A stretch of DNA of 33,902 nucleotides, from contig PS015374.1 of the NCBI GenBank assembly GCA_048213135.1, positions 1 through 33,902 of the forward strand. The letters are read 5' to 3'. Numbering within the stretch: position 1 is the stretch's first letter; the number at the start of each line of letters is the position of its first letter. Source of the stretch: Reclinomonas americana ATCC 50394 (taxonomy: Eukaryota). Under the pieces are notes generated by a model that had not been told where the DNA came from, searched no databases, and saw only the letters and a program-made list of their open reading frames with translations. Below, in pieces: positions 3,437-32,600 of this stretch. A program made the translations under genes and the position numbers.

Positions 3437-4074
3437 CGGTGGTGCATACGGCGTACGAGCCGCAAGCGGAGGGCGAGCTGCGTTTGAACACGGGCGACAC
3501 GGTGAAGAATGTGCCGCGTGATGCGGACTCTGGCATGTTGCATGGCGTGCTCAATGGGCAGTCGGGCACCTTCCCGGCCTCGTGTGTGGTGTTGTACACG
3601 TCGGCGCTCAGCTTTAGCGGTGCCGTCTTTGACAGCAGTTGCGGAGGGGCGCCACCTTTTACCGCCGCTTCTCTCTCTCTCTCCCTCTCTGTGCTCACTG
3701 TTTTTGTGGGTACGAGCGCAGCCTCGATGACGTGGAGCACGCTGAAGCTGTCGGGCGATATTCCTTCTGTGGCCGACGCCTTCTCGGCGGTCGCCGTCGG
3801 CTCGACCATCTTCTTGTATGGTGGTGTCACGGAGCGCGACAACCCCGTGGCCACGCTGAGCGCCTTCAACCCAGGTTGGTGTCTCTCCTTGTGTGTCGCT
3901 GACGGCCACCCCGAGTGCCTGACGCGCAACTTCTGACGCAGAGACTGGCGTCTTCACCACGGTCGTCGGCAGCGGTGATGTACCGCAGCCGCGATTCGGT
4001 TGTGGCATTGCGGCGGTGGGACCCGAGCACTTTGTGCTGTATGGCGGTCGCCTGTCGCGCGCCTCCAACTCGCT
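3437..4074 (+). CDS. SH3 domain followed by Kelch repeats (flanked by gaps; may be the N-terminal part of the downstream gene)
   Basis: AVVHTAYEPQAEGELRLNTGDTV...GVLNGQSGTFPASCV is SH3-like. FDSTSMTWSTLKLSGDIPSVADAFSAVAVGSTIFLYGG and GDVPQPRFGCGIAAVGPEHFVLYGG are Kelch-like. Introns at 3638-3721 and about 3874-3940. Confidence 0.75.
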
Positions 4075-4094
4075 NNNNNNNNNNNNNNNNNNNN

Positions 4095-29600: not shown

Positions 29601-32600
29601 GCATTCGTGCTGTATGTGTGTCTCACACGACGTGGTCGACAGGCAAGTGGCAAAAGGATCGGCGCTATGTGTGGGACTTTGGCTGCATCAGCATTCTGTT
29701 CACGCATCAGGACGAGCAGTGTGTGACGGAGACGAGCCGACTGTTGTGTTCGCTGACGGGCGACAGGAAGAGTGCGCCCTCCTCCCCCCTCTCCTCTTTA
29801 TTTCGTGCTGCTCATGAACTCTGGCAGTGGCGGAAGAGGTCGGACAGCGATTCCATGTGGACGGCCTCATTGGTGTGTTTCTGGAGGAAGAGAATCAGCT
29901 CATCCTGCTGTACCTGGTGAGCACGCTGGCCAATCTGCTGGAGCACGGTACGTCGGCGTTGTGTTTGCTTGTGGATTTCAGTGGAACTGCCGTCACCCAC
30001 ACTGTGTTGTCTCGGTTCCAGGATCACCGACCACCAAAGAGCGCGTCATGGCTGTCAATTGTGTCGGTCGACTTGTGCACCTGGTGCAGAGTGCGTTGCA
30101 GTCGCACGACTTGCTCTGCCAGGTACTGCGCGCTCTGGTGTTTGTCGCCGACAATGGTGCGTGAGCTGTCGATGAATGCACGTCTCTTTCTGCTGCATGT
30201 GCACCGACCGCCTCGTGCGCGCAGATGAGATTGCGTCGTTCTTGTTGTCGAATCGCGTGGACGAACTCCTGCTGGTGCACTGCCGTGCTGCGGCAGAGTT
30301 TCGATCGCGTGTGGCGCACGGTTCGCCGACTGCAGCCGGGATTGCAGGCGAACAACCGTTCTTGGCGGCTTTGGTGGCCACTGGAACCACCACGGCTCCT
30401 CTGCTGCAGCTATATGCTCCTGGCGTCGGTCAGCTGCGCGGTATGCTGCCGGCGGCCGGTGACGCCACAGATGCTGGCATGGAGTTGCACAGCGTGGCCG
30501 ATTCTGTGCACACCTCGGTGGCCGACATGACTCCTCGATTCGGCTTCCCCACGGCATTCATCGACGGCGGCGACGGTGACGGCGAAGGAAGCATGTCGCA
30601 CGTGACGGGCGCGGGACGCGGCCGATCTGTTGCGTTACACGAGTGCGCGCACACACGTAGCATGTCAGACTGCTCACCGTCGTTGCACCCCAGAATGCAG
30701 CGGCAGTCGCCGACACAGTGACCTCGTCGAGTGACGACGGTGGTCTGGACACTGCATTCGGCGTGTCGCCAGAGACTGCGCAGATGCTGCGTCGGCATCG
30801 TGTGCTTCATCGCCTCGTGCTGTACGTACTGGTGAAAATGTGTCAATCCGGTATGCATGCATGTGCACTCCAGTTGTATGTCTCGTTTCTCATCGGTGGA
30901 GTTGCTTCTGCGCGCAGAATACGCCTGCCACCAACTTTATGCCAGCGGCGTTCTGCAAGTGTTCCTGGATGCCCTGTTGCTGAACGATGCTTTCTCCATG
31001 CAAACCGCGCTGTTTGGCTTGCGTGTACTCCTGCAACACATCGGTGCGCCCGCACGTGTGCACTCTGCACCATCACTCGCTCGCTCGCTTGTTCACTTTT
31101 GTTGCATCTGCAGGAGAGGCTGCCGTGGACATTATGGCTGCGGGCGGCATGCCACTTCTCATTCGCTTCATGGACTCCAAGGAGGACGCCAGCAGGCAAA
31201 TGACATGCCACGTGCTGTCATTCTTGGTCACAAATCGTGCGTACCCACTACCCACGCCTCGTGCGCGATGATCAGTGGCATCTCACGCGCGGTGGTACAG
31301 CCGAATACAGTGACGCCTTTCAGAAGCACGGAGGCTTTGCGTCTCTTCGTGGCCTCGTGCAGACGAGCAACATGCAGACGCAACAGGCCGTGTGCTTGCT
31401 GCTCGCCTCCTTTGCGTCGACACGTTTCGTGTTGAGCTGCCGTGTTGTGTACAACAGTTGCCACTGTCCAACACATACTTCCATGCAGATGAAAACATGG
31501 CGGAGCTCGGCAACGAGCGATATCTGCACCACCTGCTGCACATTCTCAAGCACCGCGATCGCAGCGTGCAATACTGGGCCACCCGAGCTCTCTCCAACAT
31601 CACCAATCATCGTGCGTCTCGTATATACATCTTGGTCCAAGAGCTGACTGACACGCACATGCTCATCATCATCACACTTCGCATGTGCAGCGGAGAACAA
31701 GTACACGGCGTTTGAGGTGAATGCTGTCGGCGCAGTGTCGGAGATCATGGATGAAGTGTACCACGCGGAGACGCGACACGCCCTCATTCAGTTTATTGGC
31801 AACGTAGCGGAGCTCGGTACGTGTGCATGTGGGTGGAGGAGGAGTGTCGACAGAGCGACTGAAGACATGCACTCCACTCTGCAGGCACACCGGTCGAACC
31901 GACTGTTATTCGGCGACTAGTGCGGCTGATCCTCGACTCGACCGACGTGAAGCTGAAGGTGTTGGCGGCCCGTTCATTAGCGAAACTCAGCATTCATGGT
32001 ACGCCCCGCATACTTACACACACACATGCACGGTGGAGTCCATGTGCTCACGCCGATCGCAGTGTACAACCGACAAAGCATGCTGGGCGAAAACATTCTT
32101 CGCATGGTGTGGGACCTCCTCGAGTCACCGTTGCCGACGCTGGTGGCCTACGGAGCTGCCATTGTGTCCAACCTTGCGATTGATGGTGCGTGCCGAAATA
32201 AGGAGGGAGGCATTATTCCGCTGGCAGTTGTGGTGACCAGTGTGAGGTGTGCGCACAGACGAGTGGGAAGTGCGCCTGATTCAGCGGCAGATTGTGGTCA
32301 AGCTGACCGAGTTGGTGGACTCGCCGCACCAGTCGGTGGCCAAGTGGGCGTTGTGTGCCCTGTGTAACTTTAGTGTGGAGGGACGCAACACGGACTCGTT
32401 CTTCGAGTGCAACACGCTCGGACGAGTGATAACGCACTCGAAGAACTCGGACCAGGAGTTGCAAAAGCGTGCGACCACCGTGCTGGCCAACCTGTCGATG
32501 AATGGTTCGTGAATGACTTGAGTCTATTACTTTGTTGGAGAGGCTCACTCATGTTGCCACATGCAGCCGCCGTGCAACGACACCTGCTGCAGACGCAAAT

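Follow-up and report, generated by a model that had tools for sequence, protein, structure and literature searches.

The 33,902 nucleotides (nt) of Reclinomonas americana ATCC 50394 analysed here (the window: positions 1 to 33,902 of contig PS015374.1, assembly GCA_048213135.1; contig C366 below) raise the question of how introns with two kinds of 5' splice site (donor) are recognised in one genome. In the major spliceosome, the recognition of donors is taken to depend on a single, nearly invariant arm of U1, a small nuclear RNA (snRNA). A preliminary description of the window had listed 15 donors that start with GTTGCG, and had proposed either that ordinary U1 is routinely used in a bulged or shifted register, or that a variant U1 or U6 serves a second donor class. 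Observed in the genome are such a donor class, two U1 genes, the complementarity of one of them to the class, and U2-type 3' signals common to both kinds of intron. Our reading, to which we give a probability of about 80%, is that major-spliceosome (U2-type) introns have donors of two classes, each with a U1 snRNA as its reader, which for the second class (class II) is a variant paralogue.

Census of the GTTGCG donor class

The assembly (108 Mb, 57.5% GC, median intron 68 nt) is eukaryotic, fragmented and apparently two-haplotype; several contigs look bacterial by inspection and may be contamination or symbionts. Introns were predicted by a Viterbi gene finder that treats both strands and models coding sequence, introns, acceptors, branch points and lengths, but knows a donor only as GT. 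Training and census used 774,722 nt, made up of C46 1-560 kb, C14 100-270 kb, parts of C392, C429 and C343, and the window. From 2,387 introns, 8 that touched N or an edge and 122 longer than 110 nt were removed, leaving 2,257 short introns.

GTTGCG was the commonest donor hexamer already in the first round of the finder. It starts 352 of the short introns (15.6%, 95% interval 14.1-17.2), 24 times the 14.8 expected from a position-independent donor matrix, and GTTGCGT starts 267 where 5.3 are expected; within genes, only 346 of 48,426 other sense-strand GT dinucleotides continue as GTTGCG. A two-class donor mixture lowered the Bayesian information criterion from 63,311 to 59,117 (a drop of 4,194) with a second-class weight of 0.21-0.24. 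The class II family, here taken as donors that lack +5 G and differ from GTT(G/A)CGT by no more than one base, accounts for 466 of the 2,257 introns (20.6%). In an annotation-free count, a branch-point-like word and YAG followed 59% of 381 GTTGCGT sites, compared with 27% of 79,763 GT sites. Tabulated over these 775 kb, the GTTGCG share exceeds a position-independent matrix, the comparison by which the preliminary description had proposed to judge it, and the class is confirmed as real and beyond chance. Predicted introns that have neither -1 G nor +5 G number 620 of 2,257 here, while in a human sample both are missing at 6 of 1,990 (PMC8283771; Artemyeva-Isman and Porter 2021).

It is very unlikely that the class is an artefact, whether of a family of repeats or Introners, of another organism in the assembly, of wrongly predicted donors or of a cleavage point that really lies one base into the motif. 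All introns are computational, and the assembly is fragmented with some bacterial-looking contigs, but the motif emerged in a finder free of any donor model, and when both intron ends were slid by one base, 5 of 232 informative cases acquired stop codons. An Introner origin was ruled out by intron bodies that are unrelated (8 BLAST pair matches among the 352, mostly simple repeats) and by positions held in common with class I in paralogues: among 65 intron positions common to 25 paralogue pairs, which are not independent, 11 are II/II and 5 are I/II. A mixture of organisms was ruled out because the classes alternate within genes, 176 of 312 intron-bearing gene models carrying both; at least one GTTGCG donor is found in 143 of the 167 models with five or more introns.

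Donor choice was also ranked by protein similarity alone, with alternative in-frame donor/acceptor pairs as competitors. From 94 gene models with at least two GTTGCG donors, the 80 longest exons were compared with Pfam; 15 matched, and three (G-alpha, SF3B3-like and peroxidase) were followed up. Over 15 GTTGCG donors, 10 were best outright, 4 were tied or uninformative and 1 was outscored. GTTGCG was best at all three donors in NSF (GT alternatives only) and at all three in a G-alpha gene (against one homologue); in an SF3B3-like gene three were best and one tied, and A/GTTGAGT (the slash marks the exon end) was best by 12.6 bits.

Profile of class II introns

Class I makes up about four fifths of introns, mostly G/GT-(G or A)-N-G-T, and class II about one fifth, H/GTTGCGT with one-mismatch relatives. 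The 3' signals of class II are the same as those of class I, with a CT(C/G)AC branch-point consensus, the branch A about 18 nt from the intron end, and CAG or TAG acceptors; intron length did not differ between the classes (p=0.13). At the exon end, -1 G is depleted five-fold, while the enrichment is 2.1-fold for A and 1.7-fold for T; G is found at -1 of 22 of the 352 GTTGCG donors versus 1,141 of 1,346 class I donors. Exons that end in A, C or T are followed by 423 class II-family donors and 205 +5 G donors, and the phase difference between the classes largely tracks the -1 base. A at -2 is enriched in both classes, which rules it out as a discriminator. The separate profile looked for in the preliminary description was therefore found in part: there is a separate peak with its own -1 base, while branch point and length are ordinary. 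At +5 and +6 class II has C and G, so that it lacks the G+5 for the U6 ACAGAGA box, and its G+6/T+7 mirror the stringency and base order (T>C>A>G) of class I G+5/T+6.

Two U1 genes

An Rfam search of the genome placed U1 at three loci, all full-length matches: one canonical gene (C343:5715-5887) and one variant present as a haplotype pair (G000 C429:9347-9500 and C479:4310-4463). A search for further copies by stem-loop-4 pattern gave 16 matches and the same three genes only. The variant matches covariance-model positions 1-166 (E 4e-14) with a score below the Rfam cut-off, as does the canonical copy, and its alignment includes the protein sites of loops I and II, presumably those of U1-70K and U1A, an Sm site, a UUCG stem-loop 4 and a free 5' arm; on folding, its first 11 nt are unpaired (z -2.87). 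The arm reads AUACGUAACUU in the variant and AUACUUACCUG in the canonical U1. Because both arms are 11 nt long before helix H, the change amounts to three substitutions, U5G, C8A and G11U. Loops I and II and also stem-loop 4 contain lineage-specific words that the two U1s have in common, and the contigs bearing either gene hold both intron classes. The variant gene has an snRNA promoter and bears the mark of purifying selection. A CCACAA element is located at -65, compared with -61 to -71 in U2, U4, U5, U11, U6atac and one U6, and the haplotypes are identical from -74 to +223, whereas about 30 events separate them in the 1.2 kb upstream; identity over the 154-nt gene has a P of about 0.02, and over all 297 nt of 5e-4.

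Predicted pairing of the U1 snRNAs with the donors

Pairing energies were calculated in fixed register, canonical U1 being tried in the canonical, +1-shifted and +3-bulged registers. Over the 352 GTTGCG donors the median energy was -9.4 kcal/mol for variant U1 and 0.0 for canonical U1 in all three registers, the +1-shifted canonical helix having a mean of -0.5 kcal/mol; over 352 sampled class I donors the medians were -6.2 kcal/mol for canonical and -1.2 for variant U1, which keeps the two codes cleanly apart. With G+1 opposite C9, the variant pairs GTTGCGT at all seven positions with one wobble (C9:G+1, A8:U+2, A7:U+3, the wobble U6:G+4, G5:C+5, C4:G+6 and A3:U+7), and U10 faces an A at -1. 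C8A and U5G repair exactly the two mismatches of canonical U1 in the +1 register. Of 413 class II-family donors, 361 have C opposite U1 nt 5, versus 471 of 986 class I donors (non-G only; p=2e-47), and such fixation of C+5, which U5G predicts, fits only the variant and not a shifted canonical U1. A at -1 rises from 31% of perfect-match donors (85 of 272) to 60% of one-mismatch donors (116 of 194; p=1e-9) and is present in 12 of 12 GTTGCGG donors. Since it rises when the intron-side match weakens, a U is indicated opposite -1. The presence of such a gene in the genome thus supports the suggestion that a variant U1 serves donors of a second class.

Two side observations touch the variant U1. In the 490-1230 nt upstream of the variant gene (L027:8120-8860, G000 C429; also in C479) the sense strand carries five GTTACG and four GTTGCG words. 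No 700-nt stretch of the 775 kb holds more than five GTTACG (about 0.04 expected); the cluster is kept in both haplotypes, and GTTACG shows none like it upstream of other snRNA genes. It is possible that it forms a variant-U1 binding array for feedback or read-through control. At G000 C14:128640-131255 lies a PRP39-like gene, named by inspection of its predicted protein, in which the donor of the last intron, of class II, precedes 16 nt with the exact sequence of part of U1 stem-loop 4. A 470-nt intron of the gene seems to hold a stop-containing cassette exon.

Several observations weigh against class II being read by the variant U1. Expression of this RNA and its binding to class II sites are predictions, as are the intron calls themselves, and 559 of the 2,257 short introns fit neither simple class rule. 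Both U1 genes score under the Rfam cut-off of 69.5 bits (variant 64.0, canonical 63.7). One metagenome pattern scan for relatives with the variant arm gave three matches, none of them a U1, and the complementarity described is that of one genome. In a peroxidase gene one GTTGCG donor was best and three were uninformative, and one was beaten by 5 bits by GC-donor alternatives. GTTACG, the perfect complement of the variant arm, starts 9 introns compared with 352 for GTTGCG. In intron interiors the two words stand at 5:46 (p=0.02), and the ratio that corresponds in class I is 95:376, so that GTTACG has a smaller share among donors than either would give, and G+4 is selected by something beyond Watson-Crick pairing to the variant U1. 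The three canonical U6 copies cannot pair with C+5/G+6 in the normal register and so do not account for the catalytic step. The compensation by -1 A fits a shifted canonical U1 as well, U10 being present in both RNAs, and does not discriminate between them.

The last point would suit a rival explanation in which class II is real but is chosen by canonical U1, shifted or bulged with the help of proteins (U1-C, Luc7), or without U1 through U6, U5 and intron definition in introns as short as these, the variant being a bystander or regulator. Shifted and bulged registers have been proven in human cells (PMC4856993), the resemblance of G+6/T+7 to the class I profile is also in its favour, and GTTACG, rare among donors, is clustered upstream of the variant gene, which might point to a function outside splicing. 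We nevertheless regard this explanation as improbable, as canonical U1 gains nothing at the median donor in any of the three registers. C+5 would be mismatched to its U5 and nevertheless shows much stronger fixation than +4 in class I; the -2 C of a shifted register is not enriched (0.86); and two of the variant's substitutions coincide exactly with the two shifted-register mismatches. Routine bulged reading by ordinary U1, as first proposed, is disfavoured because the bulge register would favour the -1 G that is depleted in class II. The register is indeed shifted, though the shift belongs to the variant U1 itself.

Other snRNAs and the minor spliceosome

The snRNA searches scored part of the candidates in a gapped assembly. 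The idea of a variant U6 was not borne out, an Rfam search giving three canonical copies (48 of 4,277 candidates scored) and a search by pattern outside the ACAGAGA box giving the same three and one unrelated match. These copies have two substitutions relative to the Rfam consensus, adjacent to AGC and in the internal stem-loop region, and one of the three has the CCACAA element. U2 is present as two diverged types (199 nt and 216-217 nt), both with a canonical branch-recognition sequence. U4 was found, as was U5 with a canonical loop, below cut-off. Among minor-spliceosome parts, U11 was found with a canonical 5' end, the U12 candidate is weak, and no U4atac match was obtained (50 of 876 candidates scored). 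One U6atac was found (two haplotype copies) with the CC box ACCGAGA, and there was no second among 11 pattern matches. The helix-Ia segment GAUC of the U12 candidate, as in U2, matches this U6atac. On the minus strand of G000 C46 there are two candidate U12-type introns with a ATATCCTT start and CCTTGAC branch words, and a doubtful GTATCCTT U12-type intron.

This U6atac could suggest a minor-spliceosome hybrid in which G15/C14 of ACCGAGA pair with C+5/G+6, together with variant U1 and U2. The sole U6atac found does have the CC box, and by inspection its helix-I segment can pair with the GAUC of U12 and U2. However, the CC variant is the sole U6atac in Trichoplax, cnidarians, Acanthamoeba, Physarum, moss and oomycetes with ordinary U12 introns (Davila Lopez et al. 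2008, PMC2396436), U11 is canonical here, and ordinary ATATCCTT introns are present. GTTGCGT does not fit the U12-type donor RTATCCTT, a CCTTRAC-type branch word occurs in 1 of 352 class II introns, and +7 G, the partner for C13 of U6atac, is found in 12 of 352. Such a hybrid is most unlikely, and U6atac was rejected as the class II reader, the CC variant being already known and class II being without every other minor feature.

Donor sites in the window

GTTGCG occurs 47 times in the window, and the 15 sites of the preliminary description are among these, each with the motif on the strand given there. As claimed, 14 sit in coherent gene models, and 24661 alone among the 15 has G at -1. The donor-blind finder chose 12 of the 15 with margins of 1.5-10.1 natural-log units, the scale used below; it missed 9132, 25297 and 13850, and chose a 16th GTTGCG donor absent from the earlier list (23276, minus strand). 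The blind pass predicted 97 introns of up to 110 nt in the window, 13 of them with GTTGCG, and a donor-aware pass predicted 104, 15 of them with GTTGCG.

On the plus strand, class II introns are located at 3638..3721 (A/GTTGCGG, margin 5.5), where both flanking exons match, to SH3 and then Kelch, at 5392..5474 (C/GTTGCGA, margin 8.6), at 9671..9729 in a GDSL-like hydrolase gene whose next exon matches Lipase_GDSL_2 (T/GTTGCGT, margin 1.5), at 17638..17707 in a small Cys-motif gene (T/GTTGCGT, margin 6.8), and at 30629..30693 (T/GTTGCGT, margin 6.2). On the minus strand they are located at 8189..8278 (T/GTTGCGT, margin 7.8), 23660..23736 (A/GTTGCGC, margin 1.8), 24592..24661 (G/GTTGCGT, margin 10.1) and 25729..25800 (A/GTTGCGT, margin 3.0), and the additional one lies at 23207..23276 (A/GTTGCGA, margin 2.2). 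A probable class II intron at 25235..25297 on the same strand (T/GTTGCGT) has a rival in-frame GT 9 nt upstream; its blind margin was -2.2, and it was picked by the donor-aware pass. The motif at 9126..9132 on the minus strand (GTTGCGT) is a possible donor whose acceptor would fall in an N gap, as the preliminary description had said (margin -35.9).

The NSF/Sec18 genes are tandem paralogues (window 10636-17333, minus strand) that are 62% identical and have intron positions in common. Their second introns, at 13775..13850 in copy B and 16985..17053 in copy A, agree in position and class (both T/GTTGCGT), so that the same intron is indeed found in both copies. The copy B donor, missed by the blind pass (margin -6.5), was the best of 4 in-frame choices (hidden Markov model (HMM) 32.9 versus 23.7 bits, and by the paralogue), and the copy A donor was the best of 5 by HMM and paralogue (margin 7.4). 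Intron 1 shows a class switch, being C/GTTGCGT in copy B (13938..14036, minus strand; the sole in-frame GT choice, margin 7.6) and class I G/GTTCGTC at 17208 in the paralogue. Copy B also has a long repeat-rich intron from near 13630, with a duplicated segment. Best database matches of an NSF exon were scattered, with identity up to 77%.

RPS28 (window 18148-18823, minus strand) has five predicted introns, 10-nt and 15-nt micro-exons, and one 141-nt intron with a weak donor. Its class II intron at 18640..18716 (A/GTTGCGT, margin 4.5) is followed by exons that match Ribosomal_S28e; the protein-motif support claimed for RPS28, SH3 with Kelch, and NSF was in each case confirmed by Pfam matches and homology. 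The weak donor, G/GTCTCGT at 18489..18629 (minus strand), lies 3' of the 10-nt micro-exon, and its class is uncertain, as it has -1 G and the two U1s pair with it about equally well (-4.1 and -5.3 kcal/mol); with it, the donor-aware pass gave an intact RPS28. It is one of four similar donors that had been grouped with the class. Of the others, C/GTTTCGT at 31424..31488 (plus strand, margin 4.5) fits as a one-mismatch class II intron (variant U1 -5.7 versus canonical -1.4 kcal/mol), G/GTTGTGT at 26220..26300 (minus strand) has -1 G and is ambiguous, fitting both U1s about equally (-8.2 and -9.0 kcal/mol), and AG/GTGATGT at 4825..4906 (plus strand), without +5 G, is outside the class, pairing better with canonical U1 and relying on exon-side pairing. 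A possible one-mismatch class II intron, A/GTTTCGT at 21124..21191 (minus strand), was found by the donor-aware pass only.

Comparison with known systems

A shifted (+1) U1 register at human 5' splice sites was reportedly described by Roca and Krainer in 2009. In human cells the shifted pairs are likewise displaced by one, with G+1 opposite U1 nt 9 and cleavage before GU, and validated bulge and loop registers concern about 1.5% of sites and ordinary U1 (Tan et al. 2016, PMC4856993). Here, by contrast, 16-21% of introns are involved, the standard U1 is unable to pair with their donors, and the mismatches are repaired by a U1 encoded in a gene of its own. U1 has co-evolved with unusual donors in Entamoeba (ACAAAC) and Mastigamoeba (ACGUAC), the latter also having the U5G change (Roy and Bowser, bioRxiv 10.1101/2022.06.08.495308); in both the modified U1 replaces the standard one in normal register, whereas in R. 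americana both coexist, with non-overlapping classes and a shifted register. Physarum polycephalum, mentioned in the same preprint as unpublished, does have coexisting standard and modified (ACAUAC) U1s, but with one substitution and the normal register, and the part of the preprint consulted describes no separate donor class. Human variant U1 snRNAs are also paralogues with altered arms, but account for less than 0.001% of U1 small nuclear ribonucleoprotein (snRNP), and no matching donor class appears in the part of the source consulted (Mabin et al. 2021, PMC8457000). The left- and right-handed 5' splice sites of LUC7 are likewise two donor classes, exon-side and intron-side, but depend on protein paralogues, with a single U1 and a single register for both (Kenny et al. 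2025, PMC11842720).

The best functional analogy is the U11 snRNP of the minor spliceosome, which likewise gives another class of introns a 5'-splice-site reader of its own. It differs in that class II branch points are U2-type and that the variant RNA has U1 and not U11 features, in a genome that also contains, separately, canonical U11, U6atac and a weak candidate for U12. No published GTTGCG class or register-shifted U1 paralogue was found in a search of mostly non-subscription literature without supplements, which may bear on Physarum U1 variants. Class II is probably a new variant of U2-type splicing with its own U1. We think it somewhat likely that this U1 is a third dedicated 5'-splice-site reader beside U1 and U11, that is, an essential U1 paralogue with an orthogonal code that serves a fifth of introns, with an unchanged U6 accepting the extra base.

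Proposed mechanism and significance

In the proposed mechanism, canonical U1 would read class I donors and the variant U1 snRNP would bind class II donors in the +1 register. U2 would bind an ordinary branch point in either case, and a tri-snRNP (U4/U6, U5), presumably common to both classes, would finish splicing. U6 may pair with G+6/U+7 with one intron base looped out, cleavage staying before G+1; we infer this register because G+6/T+7 mirror class I G+5/T+6, although pairing to U1 explains the mirror equally. Class II may have spread because the exon was freed from ending in G. Its history would run from rare shifted-register sites, through a U1 duplicate with compensatory changes, to spread of the class where exons end in a base other than G, and introns may convert between the classes by small changes.

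If this is true, splicing could be switched globally by the level of variant U1, which might regulate itself by way of the clustered perfect targets upstream of its own gene. For the shifted register the system would amount to a suppressor-U1 experiment made by nature, and it would make testable how U6 sets the cleavage site without -1 G and +5 G. It would also matter for gene prediction in this lineage and for the engineering of orthogonal U1s. A two-U1, two-code system would show an intron class arising by snRNA duplication, and would provide a small-scale model of the split between the major and minor spliceosomes.

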